Assembly (NCBI GenBank): GCA_030390025.1
Contig: CM059450.1
Location: 14,508,001-14,572,000, forward strand
Direction: 5' to 3'
DNA length: 64,000 nucleotides
Source: Squalus acanthias
Taxonomy: Eukaryota
Shown here: piece by piece, positions 1,588 through 60,249 of the stretch
Position numbering within the stretch: the first letter of the stretch is position 1
Layout: the number at the start of each line of letters is the position of its first letter
Made by a program: the position numbers and the translations under genes
The notes under the pieces: generated by a model
What the model saw: only the letters and a program-made list of their open reading frames with translations
What the model was told of the DNA's origin: nothing
Databases searched by the model: none

Positions 1588-1593
1588 TTTATT
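1588..1593 (-). terminator. Candidate polyadenylation signal AATAAA for module B isoform
   Basis: Plus-strand tttatt at 1588-1593, about 180 nt downstream of the TGA at 1771-1773. Confidence 0.4.
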
Positions 1594-1770: not shown

Positions 1771-3170
1771 TCATGTTAGCGGTTCCTGCTTTATGACACA
1801 CTTCTGCAAGATGATCCCAGTACTTTGTCCGGAAACCTTGTTGGAATTTAAAGTCACTATGTTCCCTCTGGAAGATGAAGTTCCTGGTTGCGGTTCATGT
1901 ACTACAGAGCTCGGAGCTGTGTAAATGTAGTTGAATCCTGCATTGTCTAACATGTCGGACCAGGCCCGGTACTGAAATTCAGCAGCTCCCCAGTAGTTTC
2001 TAATACTGGATTCTGAACGGTGGCCAGTAAGTGCCATGATCTCCCGTGCTCCGAGGCCGGCGTCGCACAGGAGACGAACAGTTGTAGTTCTGAGGGAATG
2101 GTTGGTGTACCTCTGGGAGAGTCTGGCAGCAATACTGATTCTAGGCATCATGCTTCCGAGATAATTTACTCCCATTGGCTCCCGCTTATACCAGACAGAT
2201 TGTTCTCGTAACTGCTCTGGCGTCAATTTTAGAGGGTGAAGGTAGAAAGCAGGAGGGTCTGGTGGCAGCTTGGATATATAAAGTTCAAGGGAGGTGACTG
2301 GGCAGTTTACATCTCCTGGCATATCGTACATCCGACCCAGTTTCAATGGGTCCTCACGGCTTCTACTTTTCCCAGTATATTTCAGCATTGCATAGCGTCG
2401 TCCATTGGGATCTCGCTTAATAACAAAAGCGTCCGGAGGGAGGTCCCGAAGGATTTCCCGTCCACGCTTGGCAAAGTGCAACTGCAGGTCAAACCAGACT
2501 TTGTTCACAAGTGCAAGGGGTGTGTGAAGTCCCAGGACACCAGAGGTTCTGATCTTTCGGAGGTCGGCCGCATTAATCGGGGGGTGGTGGTTTGTTTCAT
2601 CCTTCCCTTGCTTTCTTAGTATCTTAAGCACACCCAAAAACACATTATTGGCACTGCTGAATTCCTTATCCTGCATCAGGCAGATCTGCCGGCTGTGAGG
2701 AGGCATCTTAAGGTGCCTGTTTAAACCAGCCCGGATGGATTTGTAACTGGAAATGCTATAGGTGTTACCGTCATGATTCCTCACCGTGCCATAAAATTCT
2801 CTCAAAATACTATTAAGTTCTTCCACTGACATAGTTTCAAATTTTTCATCTCTGCCCTTTTCAATCAGCCACTGTTTTAGGATATTCACTGCCCAGTCTG
2901 TCTGCTTGCGAGTGTTCTTCTCGTTGCGCTCTTCCTCAAGCCCAATTAGATCCTCCTCGGTCACAGTAACGTGCCGCCTGGCTCCGTCTAAAAGCTCGTC
3001 GCTGGCAATTTGCTCCTCTGTCATTTGGTCCTCAAAACTTAGCAGTGTGTTGCCATCGAAAATGCCATAGGTGTAGAGTGGGGAGTGAGACGCTGTTTTT
3101 TCGGACAGCTGTGAATTGCGGAGTAATACGTAATGTTTTGATATAATGCTTAAAAATTTTTTTTTTAAAA
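1771..3170 (-). CDS. Module B: Crypton-type tyrosine recombinase (KCTD1-DUF3504-like lineage) with catalytic residues retained; putative alternative terminal exon of ATF7IP (internal ATG at 3024 gives the 417-aa ORF)
   Basis: Motifs NTRKQTDWAV, LREFYGTVR..DG..YS, SIRAGLNRHL..PP, TPLALVNKVWF, KRGRE, RMY..PG...CPV, WYKREPMGVNYLG, YTNHSLRTT, TGHRSESSIRNY. The frame is open upstream of the ATG to a phase-1 acceptor ggattattttgtttAG|TT at 3170, matching the phase-1 donor at 9609. Confidence 0.88.
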
Positions 3171-4486
3171 CTAAACAAAATAATCCAGCAGGTGGCGTTC
3201 GTTATTAAGGTTTCCGCAGAGGTGTGCCAATATTCAATAGCGCACACCCTATTAACCAATCACTTTCACACATTACAAACCATGGCATTACATGTTGTCA
3301 CACAATAAATAGCAGAAAGACACAAGTTTGCTTTCAGTTTGAAAAAAAATGTAACGCTAAATCTCTCTTGTAGCTACCAGACCTTTCAACTATTGAGACA
3401 TTTGACATAGCAAAAAACCAAAATAGATAAAAGACACATCAATTTCATGTATGTATTCTCTAGAAGAACTGGAAAAACTTTAGTGCTGAAGAGAATCTGT
3501 AATAGAAATCGGAAAAGGCTTACAAGCTATGGAAAACGAACCTTGACCGACTGAACAACTTCCGTTTCTGCGCTGTGACGCGCTGGAGCGACGAGCTACC
3601 TGGATGCAGAATTTAAGCCGTTGAAAGTGTGTGGCATGGCAGCTGTGTGTGTGTGTGTGCATCCCGTCAGGACACTCCACTCAGTTGAAGGTTTCTGAAA
3701 ACTTTTGACGGCAACTCTTTTTGAGGACTGGATGCAGCCACATTCAAGTTGTGCTAATGAGTGCTGTTTTATTTACAGAATCTTTCCAGTTTATTTAGAG
3801 AATGCACAAAAAAGTTAGCAATTTCCTCCCCCCACCCCCTCTCTCCCCACCCAAGTGTATTTTTGTTTGTTTTAAACCCAAGCCCTCCTCAGGGATGCTT
3901 TGCACCATTCTCTTCTTTCTGGTGAGGGTAAAGATGTAGATACACAACATAATACAGACGCTACAGTTCCCCCCCCCCCCCCCCCCCCCCTTATTACATC
4001 TCTTTGGGTATTTGTGGAAGGTCTCACAGCACTTATCGTCTCAAATTCTATACTGAGGCATTCTTTAATTTTAATACAAAAGAAGTCCCCGAAACACAAT
4101 TAAACTTTGTGGCTTTAACTCTTTCTGGCAAGGTGCTCTGTAGATTTTGGAAAAAAGGCAGATTTGCTAATGAAAGGGTTAATTATATTATAATCCACTT
4201 TCAGTGGAAACGTTAACTTTAAGCAGAACAATATTACCCCTTACTTAGAGAGCTTTACTGGGCAAGGGTAACAAGGTGATCCATGACTGACTAACTTATG
4301 AGAAAGGAACAAGGTGAAGACCAGGTTGATCATTCTCCTGTACAAACAGCAACCACGTTCTACCCAAAGGGATAACTGTATTATTTCACCAACTGCACCT
4401 GGTCGGTAGAGACAAAGAGAGAGACTACAGTGGACTATCCCGGTGGTATGACGTGCAGTGATATACGTGCTGTACCCACCTGGTTG

Positions 4487-4500
4487 CCACTAGGTGGTGC
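4487..4500 (+). promoter_or_regulatory. CTCF-like motif
   Basis: ccactaggtggtgc is close to the CTCF core CCASYAGRKGGCRS; motif match only. Confidence 0.3.
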
Positions 4501-5452
4501 TTTCTTAGTGGCCGCTGACTCTCCTGGAACTGAGATAGGATGTCTCTGGGTGGCCTGGCTGAAGCTGTTCTCTGTTAATGGAATAGAAGCAATTCATTTA
4601 ACATTTCAGTTTGATGCGAGGAAAACAATTTAAAAAAAAAGTTGAGCTCCAAAGCTTCCTTTCAGCGGATCTTTGGTCCCAATGTCCACTTATTTCAATC
4701 TCTGGATTGAAGCTACCCCACACACTGCTGCAAGTTTAATCTTTCCACCAGCTGCAATAACGACCTAAGTTTTAGAATGAGTCCCGAGCACCTGGGGTTT
4801 CGTACAACCCCAACACAAGATTAGCAGGTGTGCATCAGAAGTCAGTAACACATCTAGAGATTGACATATTATTAACCATGAGCTTTAAACTAGCACAGCT
4901 GTCACTGTCATTGCATTCTCAAGTTCCCATCTGGGCTGACACTGCAACCTGCAGACAGATCAATCTAAATTTCAAAAGCTTCCTAAGTCGCTGCAGAGTT
5001 TCTATTTTGATCTATATCTACACGCAGAAGGCGTTATTAAATATAGAATTTATTTGAGGAAGAGAGAAGTAAAATGATGAAAACATAAATACACGGAGTA
5101 GATTCTGTTAAAACAACAGGCGCAGTAACAGGAGGTGGCTGTATTTTATGAAGTGTTATTTTAGTCTGGGCTACTGTAAAATGCAGAAGCAGTTTTAATA
5201 TCCCCATGTCATTATGCTAAGCAGCTTTCAACATTTACCTCAAGATTTTATCTTTTTTGAAAACTATCTTTGGATATTAAAAGCAGAGACTATAGTCAGT
5301 TACAGCATCTCCTGTAGTGCTCCCAAAGCTGGAGGATGCATTGTTTTGTAAGGTTGGAGTTTACCACACATAGTGCACAGTATTATTATGCTGCTGAAGT
5401 GTAGGAATGTGTCGCTTTAAGGCTACGAGGTATAATTGTTCTGCATTCTTAG

Positions 5453-6553
5453 ACTCTCAGTGAGATCATCCAAAAACACAATGTCAGAATCCACATGTAC
5501 ACGGACAACACCAGGCTCTACTTCACCACCACTGCTCTGGACAACTTCACTGCCTCGGATTTGTCACACTGCTTGTCTGACATCCAGTAGTGGATGAGCA
5601 GAAATGTCTTCCAATTATATACCGGGAAGACCAAACACATCGTCTTCGGTCCCTGTCGCAATCTCCGTGCTCTAGCCACTGGCTCCATCCCCCTCCCTGG
5701 CTGAGGTTGAAACAGACTGTTCGCAGCCTCAGTGTCCTATTTGACCCCGAGCTGAGCTTCCAATTAAATATTGGGAAGGTCAAAGCCATTGCCTTCAGTC
5801 CCCATGACAAACTCCGTTCCTTAGCCACCGACTCCATCCCACTCCCTGGCTACTGTCCGAGGCTGAAACAGACTGTTCGCGACCTTGGCGTCCTATTTGA
5901 AGCTGAGCTTCCGACCCCATATCCACGTCATCACCAAGACCGCCTACCTCCACTTCCACAACATCGCGAATCTCCGTTCCTGCCCATCTGCTGCTGAAAC
6001 CCTCATCCATGCATTTGTTACCTCCAGACTCAACTATTCCAATGTTCTCCTGGCTGGCATCTCACCTACCACCCTCCGTAAACTTGAGCTCATGCAAGAC
6101 TAGGCTGTCCGTATCCTAAACTCACGCCAAATCCCACTCACTGACCTACACTGGCTCCTGGTCTGGCAAAAATTCTCATCCTTGCTTTCAAATCCCTCAA
6201 TGGCTTTGCCCCTCCCTATTCTCTCTAACCTCCTCCAGCCTACAACCCTCCTAGATCGCTGCGCTCCTCCAATTCTGGCCTCTTGTGTATCCCCTGATTT
6301 TAATCGCTCCACCATTGGTGGCCGTGCCTTCAGCTTCCTAGGCCCTAAGCTCTGGAATTTCCTCCCTAAATCTCACCGCCTCTCTCTCACCTCCTCTAAG
6401 ACGTTCCTTAAAACCTACATCTTTCACTAAGTTTTGGGCCACCTGTCCCAATATCTCTGTGCGGCTTGCTGTCAAAATTTGTCTTCTAGCGCTCCTATGA
6501 AGCACCTCGGGATGTATTACTACGTTAAAGACGCTATATAAATGCAAGTTGTT
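5453..6553 (+). mobile_element. L2-clade LINE 3' fragment with an internal ~150-bp duplication
   Basis: Degenerate RT C-terminus (HMYTDNTRLY ~ YADDTQLY; AETLIHAFVTSRLNYSNVLLAG; GGRAFSFLGPKLWN); tail gacgctatataaatgcaagttgtt; 5611-5760 repeats at 5761-5910. Confidence 0.85.
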
Positions 6554-9608: not shown

Positions 9609-10289
9609 CTGCTCTGGAGGTTCCTGCATTGGTGCTGTCTGAACTGGCTGTTAATGGCTGAGCTGACGATCCGGAGACTTGCCCCTGGCTGTAAGTCTGT
9701 GAAGGCCTTGGCTGTATTGCCGGCCTAGTATTAGGAGGGCTAAAATGTCCTGGGGCAATCAAAGATTGCTGTGCTGTCCGGGAAATCTGGGGTGAAAGAA
9801 TAGGCTGAGTACTGGTCACAGAAGCAGTCTGACTGGAAACAGCACTGCTTATCTGCATTGACCCCATACTTGCAGGGGACTTCCTTTGGACTCCTGGGCT
9901 TGGCAAGGAAGGACTAGCACCATTTGCTTTTGCTACATTCGCCGATAGCTGCGATGCAAGTGGCTTGGAGAGGTTGTTAAGCGTGGGTTGGGATTGAACA
10001 GGTAAAAACTCAATTCCAGGTTGCTGGCTGGTCATCAAGGTGTTTGCCGAGGCTTGCAGGAGCTGAGGTTGGGAAGACATTGCCACTGGAACTGTAAGCA
10101 ATACTGGCACTGACTGGAGAGATACTGGCATAGGCTGGCTACTGCCGGAGGCTGGCAGCGACTGATTGGTTCCGACCACGGCTGCAGTTGCTGGGAGCAC
10201 AGGAGTGACCACAGCACCAGACGACCCTGTGTTCTGAGGTTTGGTCTGTCCGCCAACTACCTGAGGAGGTGTGAAGTTTGTAACAATAC
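9609..10289 (-). CDS. ATF7IP: ATF7IP Ser/Pro/Thr/Gln-rich exon
   Basis: SLQSVPVLLTVPVAMSSQPQLLQ, IEFLPVQS and PSLPSPGVQR match ATF7IP SLQPLPVILHVPVAVSSQPQLLQ / VEFISVQS / PSVPSPSIQR. Acceptor gttttactgttgcAG, donor GCAG|GTAAGT; 681 nt, phase 1/1. Confidence 0.92.
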
Positions 10290-10976
10290 CTGCAACAGTA
10301 AAACATCCTTTGATTAGAAACTGTAAATAGAAATATTTTATTTTTTTGCACTCCTCCCCAACTTCTCATTTGGGGTCCTAATCATGTTCACATAATGGCC
10401 AACAACCAAGTGGGTTGGGCAAGTCTGGTGTGCAGATTACACTGCGACCGCCTTCAATACGACTGATGTTAAGGGGATGCAATACAACAGGGTCAACTGA
10501 GCTCTGTGGTACAATCCTTTGGTTCACCAATGTGCTACACGATAGGGCAGTAGGATGTAGATTTAATGATGTGCCGACATACTGAGGCTCCACTAGGCGC
10601 CAGTAGGTACTGATGCTTGCCCAGGGGGTGTGAAGAGAGCGAGGCAAGCCATTTCACTATTCCACACCTACTAGTGACGATAACACAGCAGCACTGGCAA
10701 AGCTCATTGAACTAAAGTGAAGACGACATTTTAAAAATATGTTTATATCTTTGATGGATATGTACTGGCAATTTGCCAGATTACTTTTTGATAAACTTGC
10801 AGCAACAACATCCTACTCTTGTCTGGATGCCATCCTACATCAACATGGAATGCATAGGCTGTTAATGCGAGTAGAACAAAAATTAATTTGCAAGTTCATA
10901 CAATCCTCAATTAAACAAATTTAAAAATGGCAGCTTAGGGTTTTACAGTAATATTCTGTAGCTTCCAGTTCTTCCA

Positions 10977-22775: not shown

Positions 22776-23015
22776 AAAAGAAAAAAAGACTTGCATTTAT
22801 ATAGCGCCTTTTACGACCTCAGGATGTGCATCACAGTCAATGAAGTACTTGAAGTGTAGTCACAGTTGTAATGTAGGAAACGCAGCAGCCAATGTGTGTG
22901 CAGCAAGGCTCCACAAATAACAATGCGATAATGACCAAATAATCGGTTTTAGCGATGCTGGTTGAGGGATAAATGTTGGCCAAAACACGAGGGAGAATTC
23001 CCCTGCTCTTCAAAA
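22776..23015 (-). mobile_element. Deu-SINE (SacSINE1-like) 3' half
   Basis: Homologous to 8066-8320 (aagacttgcatttatatagc...cccctgctcttc). Confidence 0.8.
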
Positions 23016-23016
23016 T

Positions 23017-23360
23017 AATCAAGCAGGCTGCTTTGTCTTGAATGGTGTCAAGCTTCTTGAGTGTTGTTGGAGTTGCACTCATCCAGGCAAGAGGAGAGTA
23101 TTCCATCACACTGCTGACTTGTGCCTTGTAGATAGATGGTGGAAAGGCTTTGGGGAGCCACAGAATATCCAGCCTCTGGATCTGCTCTTGTTGCCACAGA
23201 ATGTGTGTGGCTGGTCCAGTTAAGTTACTGGTCAATGGTGACCCCCCAGGATGTTGATGGTGGGGGGATTCGGCGATGGTAATGCCGTTGAATGTCAAGG
23301 ATAAGTGGTTAGACTCTTGCTTCTTGGAGATAGTCATTGCCTGGTACTTGTGTGGCGCTC
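23017..23360 (-). mobile_element. CR1-group LINE RT C-terminal fragment
   Basis: SNHLSLTFNGITIAESP, YKAQVSSVMEYSPLAWMSA, KKLDTIQDKAA: same family as 53260-54955. Confidence 0.85.
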
Positions 23361-25818
23361 TTAAGTTACTCTCTACATACCATAGGTTTGGGGTCATCAT
23401 AGCAACAAGAATCATTTGCAGAGCTAAATCCTTCACATCTTCACAATCATGTGACTATTGCTCTTCTGCACTTGGAAAAGTCCAGTTCTTCGGAGGATGC
23501 TGCATCGATGCTTCTATGTACAAATGCAATTCGGATGTGAAGCTTCAGGGCTCTGTCTTTTATGTACAAGAGTGCTTTGGGGAAGAAGCCTTGGAATAGT
23601 TTTCATGGTTTGGCATTTTTTTGAAAAAAAAAACTTGCAAGGAGTTTTGCAGAAAGCTAATATTTATCAAAAGCAGATCCACAATCAATGCCTAAGCTAG
23701 GAATGACAAAGGCAGCCTGAAAGACAGAGGTCTGTGGAGTCTGACTTTCTAAAGATGAGGCATCAAGATAAAACTGGACTTTGCTGCAATGATCCAACAT
23801 CTTGGTTTGAACTTGACAGATTCCGAGCCGTTACAGTCCCATTGGATCCATTGAGTTTACGTTGAGCATGGAAGACGAAACCAGTTCCAGTTCCAAACTA
23901 ATTCCAGTTAAACCTACTGACAATGCCCTTAAGAAAAGTGGCTTGGGAATCCTGAACAACCAGCTGGTCATGGTATTTCCTACCATTACGAAATGCCACT
24001 TTGAATAAGATCGCAATCTTGGCACTGAACTCTTTGGAGACTTGTCCTGACGGGCATCACCGCAATATTCAATGTTTCAACAATTTTCTGAGGATGAGGA
24101 TATCAACTCCCTGCTAATTAGATTCGGCATTCTCAGGGAACAGGACCCCATCTGCCATTCAGGGAGATGTGACTGATATATTAATGGTAGTGGGTCCAGC
24201 TTAGACTAGCTGCCATAATTAAAGTCTTGATAAGAATATTTGCAGTCGTGTGTGTGTGTGTGTGTATGTGTATGGGCATCTGAGCCTGGTATTTACTATT
24301 CCAATGCTAAGGAAAATATACTACTTACTGAACTGCCACTGTCCTTTATTGCTATGTCATGGAAGCCCCTGTTGCCTCTGGTAATTGTCCACCGATTTAG
24401 TCCTGCACTCCAGCAAAATAAAATCAGAGACGAACAAAAATAATTCTAACCCCACGTTCTCTGAAGATGGAGAGGTTGTCCAATTAGTGTTCTCATTGCA
24501 GTCCCTAGGAGCCTAAGCTCAACAGAAGGAGTACAAAGTTGCTTCTTTGCAGAAAGGCAATACTCTATTGCACCGATGCTTGATGATTTCAGTCTCTTGA
24601 GCCATTGGGAATTTCCTTTACTTTTAGGTAATTCATGTTGTGGAAATCTGAAGGAAAGGCTCAATTAGGAGTGACAATCCAATATGACTATTGTAGAAGA
24701 CAGGAGGGTTTTCAGAGTGGGGGGATTGAAACAGCACTGAAAAATGCCACAAAGAATGAGGAAGTGACTTAGCTCTGTTCAAACTGTCTCGGAAGAATGA
24801 GGTATCTGCATTTCCTTGTCCTATTAGTATGCCAACCGTACCCATCTTCCATGGAGGGCAGAAAATGATTGGAGCATCACATTCATCTTTATCGCCTCAA
24901 TGGCAAAAGTTGAAAGAAGTTAAACGTTTAGCAATGTAGCTGACCTGCAGTGAAACCAGAAATGCCAACAGCGGATTTTTAAACAGAACTGTTGGGGCCA
25001 CAGAGAGGGGAACTGTAGGAAGGAAGGGACGAGGGATTTGCAACATGCACCACCTCCTAAAGCATTCCCAATCAAGATTCCTCAAGATGGTTCCTGTCTG
25101 CGTATAAAAAAAAATACATGATTGTAGACGTATTGAGACAGGGAGCTAGAGCAGCTATTGAACAGAATGGATGAATAAAAGCAAAACTAGGAGAACTACT
25201 CTTCAACAGGCATAGCTAACCGAACAAACACTTGGAAATTATAAGTCATTATTCACTTTTTACAGCTAGAGCTTGCACAGAAACACCATGAAGTAAAAGA
25301 CCAATCTTTTCTCAAAACTATTGCAGTAAGAGGAATGACGCAAGTTAACAAAGACATATTCATTTTGTTAGGCAAATCGGAATAAAATCCAATGGACCAT
25401 ATTGATAGGCTTTAATCATTTTTTAATTATATGAGGACACAGGCTAACAATTTGTTATTAAAATTTAGTTTCTTATTAGACGTGAAATCTCCAGAAATCA
25501 AAGGACAAAAAAATAACTTAGTGTTACTGACAACCACACACACACACACACACACACACACGAGAATCAATTAATAGCATAACAGGATAAAAGAAAGTGC
25601 TTTGAAAGAATCATCTTGCAAACTTACTGAAACATCTTACACTGAAGACGAGTGCAAAATACTACTTTAAAATGGTTGCATTGTCCCCAGCCTCCCTCTC
25701 CACTCCCCAGTTCTTGCAGCCTCTTCCAGGTTGGAGGTTAAGTAAGGAACTTCAACACAAATACTGCTGCGTACTGAGAAATCAGGAGGCACACCACATC
25801 AGTTTTCCCCCTCGTCAG

Positions 25819-41103: not shown

Positions 41104-41184
41104 CTCTTGTGCTTTCTTCAAGGCAGAATCATTGCGAGCTTGATTTGCTGATCCTAGCCTCTTCTCTATCTGCATTAGTTTTGC
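41104..41184 (-). CDS. ATF7IP: ATF7IP exon (AKLMQIEKRLGSANQARNDSALKKAQE), end of coiled coil
   Basis: Continues ...LQ|AK like ATF7IP AKIARLTKRF. Acceptor ttttctgcAG, donor GAG|GTAGGT; 81 nt, phase 0/0. Confidence 0.85.
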
Positions 41185-41429
41185 CTGCAGAAAACAAAAA
41201 AGAGCACAGTAAAAAATTTTAATTTTTTTATAAACAAAATCATAGAACAAACTCACCCCAGTGGTCCCATGCACCCAGGCCAAGTGTCCAAGTATTATTC
41301 TGGGTGTAACGTGGTTATTGATTGGGTTGTGTTAAAAGTAAAAACTGTAAATGTTGGAAAATTTGAAACCAAACAGAAGATGCACAGGACACTTGGCATC
41401 TGAAAGAAAGGTAAAAGCTTCAAGCGTAA

Positions 41430-41610
41430 CCAACATCACCAAAACAGGTTCTTTGGTCATTTATCTCATTGCTGTTTGTGGAACCTTACTGTGTGCAAAT
41501 TGGTTGCCTTATTTCCCTATATTAGGGAACACTACACTTCAAAAGTAACTAATTGGGACGTCCCGAGGACGTGAACGACCCTAAATGAATGCAAGTTTGT
41601 TCTTTCTTTC
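41430..41610 (+). mobile_element. Deu-SINE 3' fragment
   Basis: caacatcaccaaaacag...gctgtttgtggaaccttactgtgtgcaaattgg...aatgcaagtttgttctttctttc, reverse complement of the 8066-8260 type sequence. Confidence 0.6.
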
Positions 41611-43408
41611 CATCTGTACCCTCAATGTCTGCTGCATTTTCTGATTAATCGTATAATGATATAGACACAAGCACACATCCTTCGGGATGCTGCATCTCAC
41701 TCACTGGCTCATCGAGTTACAGGTCACAGCGGGTAGCAGAAGAGTCATTAAATCTCAACTTACTGCCCCGACAGGACAACTGCTTATACTCATTGCCTGA
41801 ACAAACAATAGGCAATTGGCAGCATTCAGAGGCATACTGTACACTGACTAGGTGGCAGATTTGCTGGTGAGATGTTCGACACCACTTTCATTGACATTAA
41901 ATGGACATTATGCTACACCCCCATCAAATCATCCAAGAGTCATATTGATTAGCACTCGCGTGTCTTTATGGCGTTATAGAAATTGAAATAATTTTCAATC
42001 TAGGATTTCAAATACTAGACCTGGCGTGGCATTATTCGTGGCAAGTCAGATGATGGATTGTTCTACGAGGAGAGAATATCACTAATGAAATTTTCAGTGA
42101 ATTGTGTTTTGTAAAAATATGCCTTTATTACCATCACAAGGTAAGTAAGGAAATAAAAATAATGTTTCCCTTATATTAGAATCCTTTATATCTGTTGTGA
42201 GCCTAAGAGGAAAGTCAGTTGGAAATAATTCAAAACAATATTGAGTGATCTGATTGGTTTGTTTTATTATATTGCAAGATGTTGCTAACTGCCAGTTTTG
42301 AAGGATTTTTTTTTTAATATAAAGTGAATGATTGATGCTTTTCATTCTTGCTTACTGATAAGTATGTTGGGACTTGATGTTTTATGAATATGAAATTTGA
42401 ACCAGTCTGGTGCACGGGTACCAGATGTTTGTATATTATCCTAACACCCAAAGAGCAGCAGACAAGTGATGAGGTTAAGATAGCTCCTGTTAAGATTTTC
42501 TGTAATGTTCAAAATGGCCAACTGTCTGGCTGGTGTTTCCGTCTGGTGATTTTATGCATGGCCTGGGAGACAGTTGCTGAGCATGTCTGATTCTGGGGCC
42601 GTCACAACAGAGCAAGCAAATGTCAATGCTGAAGTTCCACATCAGTATTTTATGGTGGATATTTTCAGGTCATTGTATTTTAAATTGTGTGCATTTCAGG
42701 ATTTTTTTAACATTTCATTTTACGATCATTTAAAATGAGCAAGTTCTGGGGGGCAAGTTCTGCTCACAGGAAAAAGTGCTGCACAACGGCTGCAAGAGAA
42801 AACAGCAAGCCTCAAATCGCAACATAGGCATCTGCCAAACAACTTGAAAGCAGAGAAATTTAGCACAGGTCGATTTGCTCTCGCTTCCTCCCTGCAGCCA
42901 AATGTAGCTGCAAAAACCACATCCTTCAAGAGTGATAGGTTGTGAGCTTTAAATCTGCCGCATTTTTGTTCCTTCAAAAACTTAAGTTAATGAACACATG
43001 GCCACAATTCAGCAGTTACAATATTTCAGCTGACAGGACAATGGCACTCCATCTTATTTCAACGTGCAATTACGTTTTGAGTCAGCAAGTCAACTATTAT
43101 TGTGTATTTAAACTGGGAAATTGGACTGTGGAAAAAACTCCACTGGTCAATGCTAACAATCTGTTTAACTGGAATCTAGGACCCAATACTTTAAAGTTGT
43201 TCCTTAAGCTCAAAAGGCACAACACAAGATAATAGTGAACATTTGAGGCAAACATACGTTCTTTGACGAATGCCACAATAACCATTTCAACAAGATTACC
43301 ATGCCATGATTGTTCATTCACAACGGCATAAGGAGTGGGGAGTGACAGTGCTGTTCCAAAGTATTTCTACCCTCTGCATTGAAGAAAGCTGTAGATTCTG
43401 GTACTTGC

Positions 43409-43546
43409 CTGTAAGCCACTGATTAAAGATTCATGCCTCGTGTTGCATTCAATTTTTTCTACTCTGTTTTTCAGCTCTGCCAGCTTCTTGTCGAAAACAC
43501 CACTCTGCATGGAGCTGATGCGCTCTTCAATGATCTGCTGAACGAT
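43409..43546 (-). CDS. ATF7IP: ATF7IP exon, SETDB1-binding coiled coil (IVQQIIEERISSMQSGVFDKKLAELKNRVEKIECNTRHESLISGLQ)
   Basis: Strong similarity to the ATF7IP conserved domain 1 (VFDKTLAELKTRVEKIECNKRH). 138 nt, phase 0/0; acceptor tttttgtgcAG; non-canonical donor CAG|GCAAGT. Confidence 0.93.
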
Positions 43547-44769
43547 CTGCACAAAAAAAACTAGAGTTACTTACCAAGAACTAGATTATCCCCTTTCCAC
43601 CATTAATCAATCAGTTTCAAATTAGCTAGATTTATTTCCTTCTCTTACCTTCCAGCTCTTGCTCTTGCTCTCCCCCCAAGTGAAAGGTAGTAGGTACATA
43701 CTGTTTTCCCAAAAATATGCATCATATAATATACGAAGCGGAGAAGTGGTTGGTGACGCCATTGAACATGCAGTCTTGGGGCAGGAGAATAAATGCACTG
43801 CGTGGACTGTCAAGATTTAGATGTTTGGTAAAACCCTGCAAGTTAATCCATGTAGCTACCATGCAGGTAGCGTACAGAGAAACCCTTTGCATACTGGCCC
43901 CAGAAGTAGGCACAGGTGTAGCAGCAGTGTTTCTATTTTGATGGTTCCTAATCAGTGAAGCCAATGGGTTTTAAACTCCTCGAGTCAGGGCTCACAATTG
44001 AAATTCTCTCCCCACCCCACCCCAACCCCAAGAAAAAAGGGCCTACTCTCCCCCACCTCAGTTTCCCCTCCACACTCCCTTCCCCCAGTTGGAATTTAAT
44101 TGAAACTAGCAGCCATTTCATGCGTCAGTGCAGCTCTGCATTTCCAAAGTATTTCTCCCCCTTTGTAGGAGAACACTATGGCTTTCTGGTATTCCCCTCC
44201 TGTTTCCCCCTCCCCTCCTACCTTCTGTTTCTCTCTCCTGAAAAGAAGTTCTAAGATTTTCAGTATTTACCAAAAAGAAAAATCAAAATTGATACTTTTA
44301 AAGTTTACTCTTGTGGGTTCTTCAAGTCAACATTACTTTTGTCAAGGCAAAAAAACTTGGTCATCACTTGCATCATCATTTGTCTCTTTCTTGCAAAGAA
44401 AACAGCCTTTGCAAGAGACAAATGATGCAAGTCCTATTGATTTTATACAAAAAGAGAGTGCGCTTTTTGGAATCAGAATTTCTGGAAAATTAAGGCCTAG
44501 AAATTCAGGCACATCCATTTTTGAGCATGCAGGGAGCAATCCCTGTGCCTGAGGCGCACCGATATTGGGGCAATAAATTACATCCTAGGGTTGCAAAACC
44601 GATAATGAACTAATCTTTTCCTCGATGTGGGAACACAATGGATAAGGTGACCATGTGACTCATAGGAAAAATAAACAGAATGAGGGGGAGATTCAATAGA
44701 TCCAGGGAACATCACTTGAGTGCAATATGACACCAAAACAGCATTCAGGAAGAACTCAACAACATTAAC

Positions 44770-45150
44770 AATCTGCATTTATATGGTGCCTTTAACGAAG
44801 AAAAACACCCCAAAGCGTAATCAGATGTGCCAACAGAGGAGATATTAGGAGGGGTGACCAAAAGCTTGGTCAATGAGGTGGGTTTTAAGGACGGTCTTAA
44901 AAAGGAGTGGGAGGGGGGTTTAGGGAAGCAACTCCAGACCATGGGGCCTAGATGGCCAACAGTATGGCTGCCAACGATGGGGTGAAGGTGGGGGGGGGAA
45001 ATGCACAAGAATGAAGAGTTATGAAGTAGTTGTAGGGCTGCAGGAGATTCCAGAGATAGGGAGGGGCAAGGCCATCAAGAGCTTCAAATACAAGGATGAG
45101 GACCGGGAGCTAATGTAGGTCAGCAAGAACAGCAATAATAGGCGAGTGGG
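44770..45150 (-). mobile_element. L2-clade LINE 3' fragment
   Basis: Antisense homolog of 6150-6550 (tgcatttatatggtgcctttaacg; gtgaccaaaagcttggtcaatgaggtgggttttaagg). Confidence 0.65.
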
Positions 45151-45369
45151 ACTTGATACGGAATGGTTACAGGCCTGCTCTTTATATCTCACTGAGGCAA
45201 TGTCATTATGTCCAGAACCTATGGTCATATTTCTTGAACAGTAGATATAACCAAACTACTTGTGGAAGAAACCACACCCCTTGGGCCCACGCTCTCTGAA
45301 GGGTACCCTACCCACGCAGAAAGACAGCTTGTGTGTGCATCAATGATTTGGTTATAGGCCGAGAGGGAG

Positions 45370-46250
45370 TGATGTCCAAATTTGCAGACAATACTAAAAT
45401 AGGAAGCATAGTAAACAATTCTGAGGACCAAAGGAAGGTGCAAGGAGATACTGATTAAGATGGTGGAATGGGCAAATAAGTGGCAGATGGAATTCAGTAT
45501 CAGTGTGAAATGGTACAAAATAAAATAATTACACTTTGAATGGGAGAAAAGCTGGGTGTTGAGGAAGAGCAGAAGACATTGGGGGTTCACGTTCACAAGA
45601 CATTAAAAACAGCACCGTAAGTGCATAAGGCACTAAAGAAAGCTAATGGAATACTGGGTTTCATGGAAGAGGTACAGGTTAAAGTCACGATGTAATGGTG
45701 AATCCATATCAAACTTTAGTAAGCCCACAACTTGAATACGGTGTGCAGTTTTGGGCTCTACACTATAGGAAGGATGCTGAAGCAGTGCAGATTTACCAGG
45801 ATGCTGCCTGGTATGAGGAAATAAAACTACAAAACAACGACTTGAAAAACTGGGGCTGTTTTCATTACAACAAAGGTGGTTACAGGATGATTTGCTAATT
45901 AAAATTATGAAGGGATCAAACAGTCATTATACATAGACTGTTTCCAGTGATTTAGGGATCTAGAACAAGGCAACATATGTATGAGATTAAATGCAAGGGA
46001 AACTTTTTTTTTTACACAGAGGATTGTGAGGCTATGGAATGCACTACTAGAGTTATTGACTGAAGCAGAGACCATGTCAACATTCAAGAGTAGGTTAGAT
46101 AGATGGTTAAAGGAAAGGGAATAAAGGGATATAGGAACAGAGTGGGCACATGGGATTAGGATTGCGACTCCTGTGCAGGATAAACACCAACACAGACTGG
46201 TTGGGGTGAATAGCCAGTTTCCGTGCTGTAATTTCTATGTAATTCCATGT
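45370..46250 (+). mobile_element. CR1-clade LINE 3' fragment
   Basis: YQTLVSPQLEYGVQFWALHYRKD; ttttttttacacagaggattgtgaggctatggaatgcactac; ends in (ttctatgtaa)-like tail. Confidence 0.75.
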
Positions 46251-46866
46251 AAAGTGTTTCTGTGGTCCTCAAATCCTGGTTAAACAAGACACCCGTTAGG
46301 CTCACAGGTGCCAATTATCTGTGGTAACTTTATCATTTCAATTGTTTCCTTTCTAGACCTGGTTCAGGGAGCACCCCAATCTCTTTGGAACTGAAAATAG
46401 TAGATACTGGAGTCTTGCAAATCTTGAATCCAAGTGCCAACATCAATAGGTCAGCTGGGTCAAACAAGGCTTCAAACAAAAAAAAGTGAAATGCCAAAAA
46501 ATGAAAAGAAATGCATCCTTACTGGAAGGGCCACATTGGTGCACCTGCAAATACTATGCCAAAAACACAAAATATGTTAAACTTTACAGAAAACTGTAAA
46601 TGCAAACTAGCTGAAGAACTTTTTTCTCTGTGCAAAGACAATAGAGTCAATAACAGCAGAACAAATCGTTCAGAACCAGGCTTTTACATATATTGGAGGT
46701 GACCAAGCTGACTCCTGTATGAAACCAAGCTGTTAAAGTGATAATGATGTTCTCTTATTTGATAGAGCAGCCTTTGTATATAGAGGATGTAAAACTGACA
46801 CGGGGAGAAGCGTGGACCACTGTTCTCTGATGAGACAGTGCAGACTCAGCAGTCCAGGCCACATAC

Positions 46867-47012
46867 CTTCTCCAGCGTCTGGCGGATCTCCCCTCTGGCA
46901 GTGATCTTCACTTTTAAGGCAGCCTCATATTCATCTCCAGAAAACCGACACCGCTTGGATATACTGCTTTCCATGTCTTCAGACTTGGACCTTTTTCGTG
47001 GCACAACTTCAT
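46867..47012 (-). CDS. ATF7IP: ATF7IP exon (EVVPRKRSKSEDMESSISKRCRFSGDEYEAALKVKITARGEIRQTLEK), NLS-like basic stretch and start of the SETDB1-binding region
   Basis: Matches the vertebrate ATF7IP motif RKRSKSEDM...EYEAEFQVKITAKGDINQKLQK. Acceptor ctttgcAG, donor AAG|GTATGT; 146 nt, phase 1 to 0. Confidence 0.93.
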
Positions 47013-50000
47013 CTGCAAAGATGGATCAAGATTGTTCTGGTTATATTTTAAATCCTTTTTAAAATATAATAGCATCCAACCATTGGTTTTACTCCACTAA
47101 ACACACACCGGATTCATTCAGTGAACGATGATCTACATTTTGGCATTTCTCACTATCACTGATCAGATGTTTATGCTCTAGATGGTGAAGACTAAAAGTG
47201 GCAAAAGTCACAATACTTCACCTTTCTAGGTCTGCGAATGCTGTAAAACTGTGTACCAAATATACAGGATGAATGCTTCTGGTTTAAGGATTTGGCTAGA
47301 CACATCATTTCACTAATGGAAGTTACACCACCAGTTTATATTGCTGGCCAATCTGCAGGACAGTAGGCTGTGTACTTTTTTATATTTCCACATTTCCTGG
47401 TCTGATACTATGGGCAACTCGATTTATTTCTAAATTTAAATATGTACTCGATTTGCAACTGGTTATTGAAGCGTAACATTTTTCTGTTAACCAATCCAGC
47501 TTACTCATTTCCTGAACTTCTCTGAACACTGTCACTTTAGTCAATACACTTCCTTTTCTTTTGACGGGAGGGATTGTAATGGGGCACCACAAATTGCCAC
47601 GTCTTCACCATGTGCACTTCGCACACGTGGGACAATAAGTCAGGGACTTTGTACCTCAGTAATTCAGAACTCGCCATACCTGGGTCCAAATCTACACCAA
47701 GCAGATGGAAGGAAAATACTGGTTTTCCAAAGGTTAACGGTTCTTAGTGAAGTGAGCTTGGGCAGTCACAGTTCAAAGCCACATACAGATGGCACGAACC
47801 TGTCTGATTCAGCACTAAACGGACAATGTTGTTCTTAGAGGCCATAAGGAGGGCTTGGAAGAGCAAACGGTAATTTTATCCTAGTGCAGTAGGGGGCTGC
47901 TATTCAGGAGTTGGCATGAAGGCACATTATTGGGGCAGGGTATCACTAAATATTACCTAACCTGTACTATACCTGTCCTGGAAGTACTTAATGCTGTCAC
48001 TGGGTGCAAGGAAGAAAAGTGTTCCATTCAACAGCACTGCCATCTCATACCCTGATGAGCACCAAAAAGAGAAAGAAAATAGTAATGTGTCTTCAGTTTC
48101 ACCACCATCCTATCCCTACAGGTCCTATAAAAACATGGCTAACGAAAGTAAGCACGTTTGTAACATTATCATCGAAATTTATGACACAGGAGGCCACCAT
48201 TTGGTCCATCGTGTCAGTGTCTGGGCTCGACAAAGATTTCATAGGACCACTACAGATAACTGATTTTTTTTGGGCAACAATGATTCACTGACCCTGGTTA
48301 ACACCCAATTACAATGTATAAAATTAGATAACTACTAATCAAATCAAGAAAAATCAGTGAAGTCACAAAGCTTCCCCCCCCCGCCCCCCCCAACATTTCA
48401 TTTTTGATTCTGAAAATAGGGATACATATTTATTTATAAGACACACATTAGTTTAAAAACATACAATGCATCTCAAGAACAGATGGCATCACAAAATTTC
48501 AGAAAGTTTGAAAGAAAGATAGAAGGACAGATAGACAGAACTTGCATTTATTTAACAACTTACGTCTCAGAAATGTCCCAAAGTGTATTTACCTGAATTT
48601 CCTTGGAGTGCAGTCAATGCTGTTGTGTAGGTAAGTGTAGGAATATTATGCAAGAAGCCTAAAAACTCAATTTTTCTGCCAACTACAGGAGCTTAGAACC
48701 AACAGAATCACTCCTCTTACTTTCTTCCACCCCCTCCCCCCAAAAACGCATATTTACCCTTAAATTGTCAACACGTTTAAGGAAACTCTGTCTCCCTGGG
48801 CCGAATTCATGTTTTCAGCTACCATTTTGGGTTTTCTCTGGTTGAGAATCAGCTTTAAAGGTCGGGTTTTCAGGAAACAAAAACCTCTAGATCATGAAGA
48901 TTAACGTATACCACCAACCTTTCATATAAAAATCACATTAAAGTCAGGCAGTGCTTGCCACCCAGTAAATGAGTCAAATCCCCTCAAAGCCCCAACAGCA
49001 CCTGAATGAGTAAATATGTTCATGGCACTTGCAGGATTAATAGCACACAAGTGCAAAACTACCCACAAAAGTGACAATTACATCTACTAACTCCACAAAT
49101 AGACAACTGTTGGCTGTAAGTAGAAGCACCTTTTAAACTTGACATTCAATAAATACTAACACCTCTTCTCCCACCTGCTGCATGCTTATTCCTGAAAATT
49201 AACGCACAAGTGTCCTTAACACTGGACGTCTCCAGCGGGCAGTGTCTGATGGTCCTTCAACCCATGGAGAAGGAGACAACAAACAAAATTTCAGCAGGAG
49301 GACTGAGCAACCCAGGTTCTGATTAGGAGAATGTGGAATGGGCACATTTGAATTGTTTCTTCATCTCCCTCTGCCTATCTTTGACTAAGAAATACAACAC
49401 TATCCTTTTGTTTTTTTGCTCGAATACTAGTTAGCTGTACTGTAAATTTTGTAGATTTATATTTCTCATCTAGAATACACAAGGAAATGAGTGTTAACTT
49501 GCAGTGGTTTGTGAAGTCACTGGCACCCAAAGATTGAATTACTCCAACGGGTTATTTCAAATATATACAGTACTAATGAAGATTATTTACACTTCAGTAA
49601 GTTTACTCATCAGAGTTCCAGTCTCTGAACTAGTACATACCACAAATTTCCAAAGTAATAAGATTTGAGAATATATTTTCTCCTTTTAAAGATTTAAAAT
49701 ACACAAGCTATTTGATTTTTATGGGGAATTATTTTGAAGTATTTTTGATTAGAGTTTGTGAGCCAAAGACACCTTTTTTCTAAAGAAACCGCAACTGCAA
49801 AGAACTATGGTAAACATACTTTTTTGTTCCATTTGATTGGATTTTGAAATATTTTAATTGATACATTACTAGGGTACTGACTCAGAAAGGATATGGAACT
49901 CACAGTGCAGGACCCCTGATTGAGCGTCGGCTGTACGGTGCACACAATCACCCGTGAATTTATGACCAACTCTTTGAATGTTCATTCAATTTGCTGTTAC

Positions 50001-53259: not shown

Positions 53260-54955
53260 AGTGCAAAAGACAAGGCTGAATGAAGCGTTTCCAACCATCT
53301 TCAAACCAGCAGTGCCAAGTGGATGATCCATATCGGCCTACTCCGGAGGTCCCCACCATCACAGAAGCCAGTCTTCAGCCAATTTGATTCACTCCACGTG
53401 ATATCAAGGAACGGCTGAGCGCACTGGATACAGCAAAGGCTATGGGCCCCGACAACATCCCGACTATCGTGCTGAAGACTTGCGCTCCAGAAGTAGCCGC
53501 GCCTCTAGCCAAGCTGTTCCAGTACAGCTACATCACTGGCATCTATCCGATAATGTGGAAAACTGCCCAGGTATGTCAAGTCCACAAAAAGCAAGACAAA
53601 TCCAACCCGGCCAATTACCGCCTCATCAGTCTACTCTCAATCATCAGCAAAGTGATGGAAGGCGTCATCGACAGTGCTATCAAGCGGCACTTACTCACCA
53701 ATAACCTGCTCACTGTTGCCCAGTTTGGGTTCCGCCAACACCACTCGGCTCCAGACCTCATTACAGCCTTGGTCCAAACATGGACAAAAGGAGCTGAATT
53801 CCAGAGGTGAGGTGAGTGTGACTGCCCTTGACATCAAGGCAGCATTTGACCGAGTGTGGCATCAAGGAGCCCTAGTAAAACTGAAGTCAATGGGAATCAG
53901 GGGGAAAACGCTCCACTGGCTGGAGTCATACCTAGCACAAAGGAAGATAGTTGTGGTGGTTGAAGGTCAATCATCACAGCCCCAGGACATCGCTGCAGGA
54001 GTTCCTCAGGGCAGTGTCCTAGGCCCAACCATCTTCAGCTGCTTCATCAATGACCTTCCCTCCAACATAAGGTCAGAAATGGTGATGTTCACCGATGACT
54101 GCACATTGTTCAGCGCCATTCACAACTCCTCAGATAATGAAGCAGTCCATGCTCGCATGCAACAAGACCTGGACGACATTCAGGCTTGGGCTGACAAATG
54201 GCAGGTAACATTCACGCCACAGAAGTGCCAGGCAATGAATATCTTCAACAAGCAAGAGTCTAACCACCTCCCCTTGACATTCAATGGCATTACCATCGCC
54301 GAATCCCCCACCATCAACATCCTGGGGGTCACCATTGACCAGCCACATAAATACTGTGGCAACAAGAGCAGGTCAGAGGCTAGGTATTCTGCGGCGAGTG
54401 TCGCACCTCCTGACTCCCCAAAGCCTTTCCACCATCTACAAGGCACAAGTAAGGAGTGTGATGGAATACTCTCCACCTGCCTGGATGAGTGCAGCTCCAA
54501 CATTCAAGAAGCTCGACACCATCCAGGACAAAGCAGCCCGCTTTATTGGCACCCCATCCACCACCTTAAACATTCACTCCCTCCACCACCGGCACACCGT
54601 GGCTGCAGTGTGTACCATCTACAAGATGCACTGCAGCAACTCGCCAAGGCTTCTTCGGCAGCACCCAAACCCGCGATCTCTTCCACCTAGAAGGACAAGG
54701 GCAGCAGGCGCATGGGAACACCACCACCTCCAAGTTCCCCTCCAAGTCACACACCATCCTGACTTAGAAGTATATCGCCGATCCTTCATCATCGCTGGGT
54801 CAAAAATCCTGGAACTCCCTCCCTAACAGCACTGTGGGAGCACCTTCACCACACGTACTGCAGCGGTTCAAGGCAGCGGCTCACCACCACCTTCTCAAGG
54901 GCAATAAATGCTGGCCTTGCCAGCGACGCCCACATCCCATTAAAAAAAAATAAAA
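53260..54955 (+). mobile_element. CR1-group LINE, 5'-truncated, frameshifted reverse transcriptase
   Basis: GPDNIP, NPANYRLISLLS, QFGFR, LDIKAAFDRVWH, GVPQGSVLGP, FTDD (YADD-type); frameshifts near 53790 and 54340; A-rich tail at 54942-54957. Confidence 0.93.
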
Positions 54956-58257: not shown

Positions 58258-59362
58258 CTGGACTATCATTTTTTGGTACCAGCTCTTCACTTTCTGTTTG
58301 ATTCTCAATTATTGGCTCATCCTCGTCTGATAAGACGAGGAATGCCTCCTCTGGCAAGTTGCCATTGCACTCCTCTTTTGGAGAACTGCTTGGAGAGGTG
58401 TCCATCTGCTCGTCCTGCGGGTCTTTCAATGGACTGTCCTTTGGCGACGGGGAATCCACTGCAGGAACAATGTCTTGCATACTGGATAGCTCATTGTCTT
58501 TCTCTGGGGCCAATTTCTCCAAAATAGGGATTATTTCTTCTATTTCCAGTTGGCTCTTCCCACCCGATTTGTTCTCACTTAATTTGTCTTTTGTTGCAAT
58601 CTCACTTTCAGTCTCTGCACACTCCATCTTAGAGCTTTCACAATCATTTTTCTCCTGCACAGATTCTATGCTACTTGTAATTGCCTCTTCACTAATGTCC
58701 AATGATCTTTCGTGGTCTTCCTTTTCTCTCACAGAGGAAGAGGAAGACTGTAACTTAAGGCTACTTTCATCTGGTACTTCCTGACTCCTGCTGTCACCAA
58801 CAGAAGGTGATTTTTCCTCTTCTGAAAGGCTCTGGGAATCAGTACATGATTTATCTGCAATTAAAGAATCCTGCTTCAACTCGACAGACTCTGGTTCCAC
58901 AACGTCATCTCCTTTGCTCTCAACATCTACCGAAACTTGGTTTCCCGCACTCCCAGTGGAAATCTGTTCATCTTCAGCAACTGGGGGTGTTGAGTCCATT
59001 TTTTCATCTTGTGGGCTTAAGTCCTTATCTTCATTAAGACATTTTTCAGCAAAGCTTAGTTCAGGTGTTTGTGTGATACTAAGTTCATCAATAGGGTTGC
59101 CTTGCAGTTCCTCTGGGCCCAGCCTCACATCATTAATGCTATCAATGTCTGTATCATCCATGCAGTTAGTATTTAGTGAGGCTTTGCCGTCAGAATCTCC
59201 GTTTTCATGTCTACCGTTACACAGTTTAGTTTTGGTCTCTTCATTTGCCTTTAAAAGCTCCTCTCTGCTTTTATAGATAGCCTCTAGCTGTTGTCGGTCA
59301 CTTGCGCGCATTGTTTTTCTGGCCTTGAAGACTTTTTTTGGAAGCTCTTCACTGGTATCCAT
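58258..59362 (-). CDS. ATF7IP: ATF7IP/MCAF1 first coding exon (acidic, low-complexity N-terminus); exon begins at 59372, ATG at 59362
   Basis: MDTSEELPKKVFKARKTMRASDRQQLEA matches the characteristic ATF7IP N-terminus, and EEAFLVLSDEDE is also conserved. Acceptor ttttcAG at 59373-59374; donor CAG|GTATGC after 58258; 1105 nt, ends phase 1. Confidence 0.93.
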
Positions 59363-60249
59363 CTCAGAACTCCTGAAAAGGAAGAAAAAGGAAAGAACTG
59401 TGAGATGAGACTCATCTAGCAGACTCAACAGGTCAGGTAATTAAACTGATCAAAAACTGCACACCATTTGGTTACTTTTGACAGTACAATCAAAAAACAT
59501 CCAGCTGATTTAGACCTGCTCATTATAGTGATTTTCCAAAGTAGTTTCCGAGCATTCAGCATATGCAGTGAACTTCGTGAAACACTATAGTCAGCTATTT
59601 AAAAAAGATAAAAGAATCTCAGTAAAATTAACTGTACTTTAAAACTACCAAGTTAAAATCCATGTGATTCAGAACCGACTATTTCCAGTTTTAGCCCAGT
59701 TAGCAAACACTGCCGACATTATAGTTTCAACATAAATAATTGTAGACATTTGGTTTAAATCAATATACATCTCTAACGTACTTACGGCAAATCAGAAAAT
59801 TTTCAATCAAACTTAGTGATAATTATGTAGGACAGGGTCCCTGTATGTTTAAATTCACCGCATTTGTTTCAAGATCAAACTCTCAACATACAACGGTCTC
59901 TAATGTAAAATCGCAGCAACAGAGTCTGAGCTGTAGGTCACAGGTATAAAACGATACGGGATGGCAATGATGCTGAAAGCAAATAATAAATTTGAATTTG
60001 CTTCTGTTGACTCCGGAGTGTGAATTTACTTGCTTACTCGAAGGGGTGCAAACAGCTGCAGTTATTTGCATTGTGTTGTATGAGGTTAAAAGTGCTGTAC
60101 CACAGCAATTGTTTTTTTTAAATTTGATATCAGAATGTCAGCTCATCTGTAGTTGCCCCGAGAAGGTGATGTTGGGCCTTCTCTTTGAATTGCTGCAATC
60201 CTCACAGTTATGGTGCTCCCGTAACGGTGTTAGATAGGAAATTCTTATT

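Follow-up and report, generated by a model that had tools for sequence, protein, structure and literature searches.

A predicted alternative last exon of ATF7IP in Squalus acanthias encodes a Crypton-derived tyrosine recombinase domain that is probably a non-catalytic DNA-binding module

In a 64,000-nucleotide stretch of Squalus acanthias DNA (contig CM059450.1, positions 14,508,001 to 14,572,000; hereafter the window), a tyrosine recombinase (YR) domain of Crypton origin lies within an intron of ATF7IP, on its sense strand, and has the features of an alternative last exon of that gene. We favor, with a probability of about 0.6, a reading in which the YR tail is a non-catalytic DNA-binding module that targets SETDB1-ATF7IP; binding of DNA, recruitment of SETDB1 by the YR isoform and the lack of cleavage are all what we infer. 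The isoform belongs to the main cofactor of SETDB1; it has persisted from sharks to birds and disappeared in mammals, and among birds its tail varies less than the SETDB1-binding region does. The locus, the idea of a fusion and possible catalysis have been known since 2011 and are not a discovery of this work. Kojima and Jurka (2011; PMC3212892) described a CryptonA-derived YR in the ATF7IP intron, with an intact sequence in zebra finch and chimaera, a frameshift in chicken and turkey and decay in mammals, and proposed that it may be translated within ATF7IP and, in some birds, may have kept its activity. Frith (2022; PMC9004415) dated the insertion to the gnathostome ancestor and suggested exaptation. 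The YR of the window differs in nothing of kind from the element of these two studies; it is in the same gene and is orthologous to those of zebra finch (P0089, 68% identity) and chicken. Relative to the accessible parts of both papers, the new elements are the behavior of the catalytic Lys column, the losses of the nucleophilic Tyr in pigeons, hoatzin and sturgeon, the constraint that persists after such losses, and a second DUF3504 module (module A) in the same gene. A literature search that covered few subscription journals found no functional test of the ATF7IP-YR fusion. The gene features of the window are as follows.

1771..3108, minus strand: YR/DUF3504 exon, Crypton-derived (445 codons and stop), predicted alternative last exon of ATF7IP (from the ORF, Pfam and the shared junction)
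1771..3024, minus strand: 417-aa ORF from ATG, the basis of residue numbering (translation)
3109..3110, minus strand: splice acceptor AG, phase 0, in the frame of the upstream exon (sequence)
4480..4571, minus strand: ATF7IP exon with a phase-0 GT donor, joined to the YR exon in annotated isoforms (tblastn and splice site)
9610..10290, minus strand: ATF7IP low-complexity exon, ends approximate (tblastn of P0002)
41104..47013, minus strand: three ATF7IP exons (46864-47013, 43406-43549 and 41104-41211), the first part of the SETDB1-binding domain ATF7IP_BD, retained in the fusion (tblastn and domain match)
58259..59368, minus strand: first large coding exon of ATF7IP, ends approximate (tblastn)
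1588..1593, minus strand: AATAAA, candidate poly(A) signal about 180 bases past the YR stop (motif search)
33646-31358 and 26235-25870, minus strand: module A, two exons in an earlier ATF7IP intron with a phase-0 acceptor, coding for a further, distantly related DUF3504 domain

A match of 97% identity to isoform X3 of Heterodontus (P0002) marks the window as a shark ATF7IP gene, and tblastn placed nine ATF7IP exons upstream of the YR exon, from 59368 down to ~4480. The 417-aa ORF, with its Met at 3024, is contained in a stop-to-stop frame of 476 aa (3201-1771, minus strand), and the AATAAA at 1588..1593 is the only AATAAA or ATTAAA on the minus strand within positions 1-1800. On the other side of the YR exon, the VIDLT and FNIII exons of ATF7IP were located in the same genome, downstream and 18-29 kb beyond the start of the window, with a strong match for the FNIII exon (E 3e-80) and a weak one for the VIDLT exon (E 0.51), which we take to encode a SUMO-interacting motif. 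Since the donor and acceptor are in frame, a stop codon closes the ORF and the VIDLT and FNIII exons lie further downstream, the YR exon can be read as an alternative last exon that swaps out FNIII and keeps ATF7IP_BD. An ATF7IP tail with YR instead of FNIII is annotated in at least 107 database isoforms, all computed gene models and counted among the 120 of 123 matches listed. These rows comprise 3 cartilaginous fish, 5 turtle, 1 frog and 98 bird isoform clusters and do not represent independent events. The YR-exon junction is common to annotated shark, ray, bird, turtle and frog isoforms; the type at 3109..3110 accounts for 27 of the 107 models and a downstream one for 80, and the VIDLT exon is absent from 106 and present in 1. 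In the computed models of Heterodontus (P0002, X3), Chelonia (P0011, X4) and Ascaphus (P0099, X2), ATF7IP_BD is followed by DUF3504 with the same junction as in the window. An earlier note on this DNA had proposed a host-captured recombinase tethered to a heterochromatin cofactor, which is supported by the in-frame acceptor and the annotated fusion isoforms and had been put forward in print in 2011. The YR isoform is presumably made in Squalus acanthias. Elsewhere in the window, positions 882-971 hold a 90-base copy, 96.7% identical, of the stretch that codes for the H-x-x-R motif (about 2076-2165); it sits 1.2 kb downstream in the same orientation and looks like a recent local duplication. 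Broken frames in introns at 53388-54826 (plus strand), 22837-23454 (minus strand) and 5581-5997 (plus strand) are presumably fragments of LINE reverse transcriptases.

In Pfam, the ORF matches DUF3504 with 47.9 bits (cut-off 29.7), and a Phage_integrase match fell below threshold. In a profile search of solved structures, the H-x-x-R motif, His and Tyr aligned with those of XerA and Tn1549 Int; a search of solved structures with the single protein sequence gave no match below E 0.1. An AlphaFold model calculated from 74 sequences has a mean pLDDT of 92 (69-73 in the beta2-beta3 loop, where the general-acid Lys is expected) and predicts a Cre-like two-domain fold. Its best Foldseek match is Cre (4crx; E 3e-9, TM 0.65), and the structural comparison with Cre covers both domains (Z 19.7, rmsd 3.7, 297 aligned residues). 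The DUF3504 score above the cut-off, the profile alignment to XerA and Tn1549 Int and the match of the model to Cre together argue that the likeness to tyrosine recombinases is not due to chance. Cre/Xer-type recombinases share with the window YR the two-domain fold and the positions of Arg I, Glu I, His II, Arg II, His III and Tyr, all six of which are present in the shark domain, but they are only 12-16% identical to it; the window YR has no known target site and only a tentative general-acid Lys. The second Foldseek match is QRICH1 in the structure of Zincore bound to DNA (E 8e-9), with a Z of 14.5 but an rmsd of 16.6 and 17-18% identity. The likeness to KCTD1 pointed out earlier is real (37% identity over 210 columns to a KCTD1-like exon of the same genome), but KCTD1 had to be rejected as the nearest relative, as Crypton-type relatives are 45-51% identical. 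With the domesticated DUF3504 domains of KCTD1, KIAA1958, ZMYM2/3/4, QRICH1 and WOC, the window YR shares its CryptonA origin, fusion to a chromatin or transcription protein and strong conservation. These domains are reported to have lost Tyr and Arg II (PMC3212892), whereas most lineages of the ATF7IP YR, which mammals have lost, still have R-H-R-H-Y. Its retention of Tyr is unusual because all seven human DUF3504 domains lack this residue (PMC3212892).

The positions of the catalytic residues in the shark domain are as follows.

2464..2466, minus strand: R187, catalytic Arg I position; Arg in 107/107 orthologue rows
2455..2457, minus strand: E190, Glu/Asp I position; Glu in 107/107 rows
2368..2370, minus strand: K219, candidate Lys; Lys in 106/107 orthologue rows and 21/93 intact Crypton-type relatives
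2362..2364, minus strand: R221, column of the Crypton-conserved Lys, Arg here; Lys in 91/93 intact relatives
2089..2100, minus strand: H309-x-x-R312 motif (H309 2098-2100, R312 2089-2091; sequence and profile)
2020..2022, minus strand: H335, His III position (sequence and profile)
1993..1995, minus strand: Y344, nucleophile position; lost in pigeons, galliforms, hoatzin and sturgeon

R187, K219, H309, R312, H335 and Y344 are all found at the numbers and in the motif contexts that the earlier note gave them. For the candidate Lys, the residue is there, but the Lys conserved in the family aligns with R221, two residues away, and not with K219. The Lys column was defined on the 93 relatives, out of 148, that have R-H-R-H-Y; the register from Y211 to this column is ungapped in 87 of the 93, and two alignments place the column at R221, which rules out K219 as the homologous Lys. 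The impression that the adjacent loop is short was correct: it comprises 12 residues (columns 221-232) compared with a median of 17 in the 93 intact relatives, 92 of which have at least 13. In the 107 orthologue rows, column 221 contains Lys in 96, Arg in 9, Pro in 1 and a gap in 1. The 9 Arg rows include every row of cartilaginous fish (3) and of turtles (5), and Pro is the residue of the frog; most birds, crocodile and coelacanth have Lys. Judging by its conservation and place, the Crypton Lys column presumably supplies the general acid. In Cre, only the Tyr and the Lys are strictly required, and no substitution of K201, Arg included, recombined in vitro (PMC2943603). Gibb et al. also point out the poor alignment of this Lys and accept as present any Lys up to five residues away (PMC2943603), so a shifted Lys could be at work, with K219, invariant among the orthologues, standing in.

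The R-H-R-H-Y set is whole in 98 of the 107 orthologue rows; one row has Cys in place of Tyr, seven end before His III and one is partial. The Tyr was lost in at least four lineages, and the Lys column varies among K, R and P. Cys replaces Y344 in 11 of 11 full-length pigeon rows from three genera (Columba, Patagioenas and Caloenas). The domain is truncated before His III in chicken, prairie-chicken, Montezuma quail and hoatzin (by a frameshift in galliforms and hoatzin), and Leu is aligned at 344 in two sturgeon models. Cys is also found at this position in the bird-like proteins P0306 and P0353; a named member of their cluster keeps Tyr. The losses were not followed by decay of the domain in the two groups in which this could be followed. 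Between chicken and Montezuma quail, the core has 4/277 differences and exon 2 has 46/298, and between rock pigeon and Nicobar pigeon the values are 2/277 and 25/308. Across all comparisons of Tyr-less groups, the 277-residue core has 2-4 differences in galliforms and 2-4 in pigeons versus 30-49 and 13-25, respectively, in exon 2, and six pairs of Tyr-keeping birds have 0-4/277 versus 8-68. By these counts, the pigeon and galliform domains are as constrained after Tyr loss as the domains of Tyr-keeping birds. Tyr-less lineages are farther from the bird majority sequence (5-13 differences, with a median of 2 in 56 Tyr-keeping genera; the comparison covered 65 genera, and Hirundo and Podargus, which gave empty cores, were dropped), which suggests that Tyr loss came with a burst of change. 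Equal divergence is found in the Tyr-keeping genera Porphyrio (12 differences) and Colius (21), both with lesions near the site.

The catalytic residues do not stand out from the rest of the domain. Between 70 and 79% of all columns do not vary across six deep lineages (shark, ray, owl, emu, turtle and frog), and an arithmetic estimate at this local rate gives a chance of about 3 in 10 that five given residues are all invariant. The rate of retention of Y344, 98 of 107 rows, is matched by W345, a non-catalytic residue that varies in Cryptons. With so much of the domain invariant and W345 retained like Y344, conservation of the tetrad is no better than that of its neighbors. When columns at least 85% conserved in intact relatives were considered, 41 of 44 were found to be kept in the same six lineages, five of the 44 being conserved by the row selection itself. 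The site has persisted for about 450 million years.

ATF7IP has received DUF3504 domains at other times as well. Module A lacks Arg I, His II and His III and retains Arg II and a Tyr; it is annotated as fused to ATF7IP_BD in 4 of 7 matches (4 shark and skate proteins), and the accessible parts of PMC3212892 and PMC9004415 make no mention of it. In saury, atf7ip isoforms (P0111 and P0288) carry a different YR, without His II and Tyr, after the VIDLT exon. As this YR falls outside the orthologue clade with a support of 1.0 and follows a different exon, it is probably a separate capture into the same gene.

The non-catalytic reading is favored because constraint persists after loss of the nucleophile, the Lys column varies and the tetrad is not specially conserved, and also because the two additional DUF3504 domains captured by ATF7IP have broken sites. 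According to this reading, a CryptonA element entered the ATF7IP intron ahead of the divergence of sharks and bony fish, and the YR that it carried became an alternative last exon. The central region of ATF7IP stabilizes and localizes SETDB1, and its FNIII domain acts as a hub, with ZMYM2 and MGA as bound partners, on which efficient silencing of some targets depends (PMC7706265); ZMYM2 is itself a DUF3504 protein (PMC3212892). The isoform would keep the SETDB1-binding region and exchange the FNIII hub for a Cre-like two-domain DNA clamp, so that SETDB1-ATF7IP would be brought directly to DNA and a single chain would do what FNIII does through recruitment of ZMYM2. Selection would maintain the fold and the phosphate-binding surface rather than the chemistry, with the Arg and His residues kept for contacts with the DNA backbone. 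A precedent may be QRICH1, whose DUF3504 domain is part of Zincore, a DNA-bound coregulator structure, and matches the window YR structurally. The natural variants, namely the pigeon Cys, the galliform truncation, the Arg of sharks and turtles and the Pro of the frog, form a ready panel for separating DNA binding from cleavage.

A module with two functions, which would bind DNA and in most lineages still cleave and religate it through Y344 in the manner of a recombinase or topoisomerase IB, with K221 or K219 as the general acid, is the main rival and in our estimation unlikely. Its chemistry would be useful but dispensable, having been dropped in some birds and sturgeon, and the R221 form of sharks may be slow. 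The seven-residue set is complete in coelacanth, crocodile and most birds, and this reading also draws on the persistence of R-H-R-H-Y and of the 41 conserved columns, the Cre-like fold over both domains, the extra change on Tyr-less lineages and the fact that other vertebrate captures are mostly Tyr-less (a Tyr is found in 0 of 12 named teleost rows, P0109-P0118 and P0120-P0121). It is opposed by at least four independent Tyr losses, plus the one in P0306/P0353, and by constraint that is undiminished after them, by the change of the Lys to Arg or Pro in sharks, turtles and frog together with the shortened loop, by the lack of any known cognate site or mobile partner, and by the stops in related Crypton copies of this genome. 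Under the refuting condition that the earlier note itself set, free variation of the catalytic residues among orthologues, the suggestion that the protein may still cut and rejoin DNA is weakened by the Tyr-loss lineages, two of them demonstrably constrained, and by the K/R/P column; the comparative tests make activity less likely but do not decide the matter. If there is residual cleavage, the bird, crocodile and coelacanth forms would be better candidates than the shark form. The strongest version, in which an ATF7IP isoform of most non-mammalian jawed vertebrates takes a still-active, host-domesticated YR or nickase to SETDB1 heterochromatin, where it cuts and rejoins DNA, seems to us distinctly unlikely. 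It would apply to the bird, crocodile and coelacanth forms with all seven residues, and sharks may use K219 on the short loop. An active enzyme would be a host-owned tyrosine recombinase in vertebrates.

Another possibility, which we regard as quite improbable, is a protein scaffold that, like QRICH1 in Zincore, mainly binds partners on chromatin (zinc-finger factors or SEPHS1-like cofactors) and itself binds DNA with little sequence specificity. The QRICH1 chain is among the top structural matches, the YR takes the place of a protein-binding hub, and the 1/277 core differences between owl and crow point to a constraint that suggests many contacts. However, the identity to QRICH1 is low, no partner is known, and even Tyr-less birds retain the phosphate-binding Arg and His residues, in keeping with contact with DNA.

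That the YR is mainly a nested gene of its own, translated from the Met at 3024, with the fusion models as minor or predicted products, is very improbable. Some databases call the Met-started 417-aa product (P0300 and P0355), the coelacanth and sturgeon models are stand-alone, and a CpG-rich patch lies just upstream of the YR exon (window positions 3401-3600; o/e 1.13 versus 0.40 window-wide), which could be an internal promoter or chance. Against this, the in-frame acceptor is retained from shark to bird, turtle and frog, birds have Leu where this Met stands, and the fusion models are numerous.

The proposal in the earlier note of a relatively young capture is refuted by the orthologues in sharks, ray, coelacanth, sturgeon, frog, turtles, crocodile and birds, which form or match a single clade, and a young capture was accordingly rejected. 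In a FastTree tree (50 rows, 333 columns, midpoint root; deep branches weak), the window YR groups with those of ray, owl, chicken, pigeon, turtle, frog and sturgeon with a support of 1.0, and the coelacanth and crocodile proteins carry the same motifs. At the DNA level, the YR is single-copy in the genome, with one match besides a 36-base one, and the several similar copies expected of a mobile CryptonA were not found; these counts are lower bounds. Protein matches in the genome number at least 11 and comprise the YR locus, one short downstream duplicate, four stop-riddled Crypton relics and five other DUF3504 genes, the next-best match to the YR being 41% identical. A young or still mobile Crypton that sits in the intron by chance, for which the intact ORF with its tetrad could speak, is scarcely credible in view of this copy number, the clade that extends from ray to birds and the published gnathostome age (PMC9004415).

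Several further Crypton-related sequences were observed. In the Squalus acanthias genome, the loci L004, L006, L007 and L011 are stop-riddled fragments, 31-38% identical to the YR, that represent relics of related Cryptons. L003:1408-2949 (G000:C3) contains an intact DUF3504-like ORF of 514 codons with a broken catalytic site, which groups with the KIAA1958-like locus L005. In other vertebrates, gene models P0123, P0124, P0125 and P0128 are Crypton YRs fused to KRAB (newt and axolotl), SCAN (axolotl) or THAP and KRAB (lungfish), and the newt KRAB and axolotl SCAN fusions retain R-K-H-R-H-Y; no report of a KRAB-Crypton fusion was found in the literature search, which covered few subscription journals. 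In the teleost proteins P0109-P0118 and P0120, a Tyr-less Crypton YR is N-terminal in PR/SET and hAT-dimer proteins, a ZMYM4 and a C2H2 zinc-finger protein. Crypton YRs appear to have been fused repeatedly to other repressive modules (KRAB, SCAN, THAP-KRAB, PR/SET and ZMYM4), in some cases with intact sites. Finally, dace has near-identical intact CryptonA YRs at several loci (P0309, P0328, P0330 and P0331; 1-2 differences in 425 aa), which likely constitute a young Crypton family in a vertebrate. They are 48% identical to the window YR and share its motifs, including the Tyr-Trp pair, but they are multi-copy, have Asp at 219 and Lys at 221, and their loop is longer, whereas the window YR is single and host-fused.
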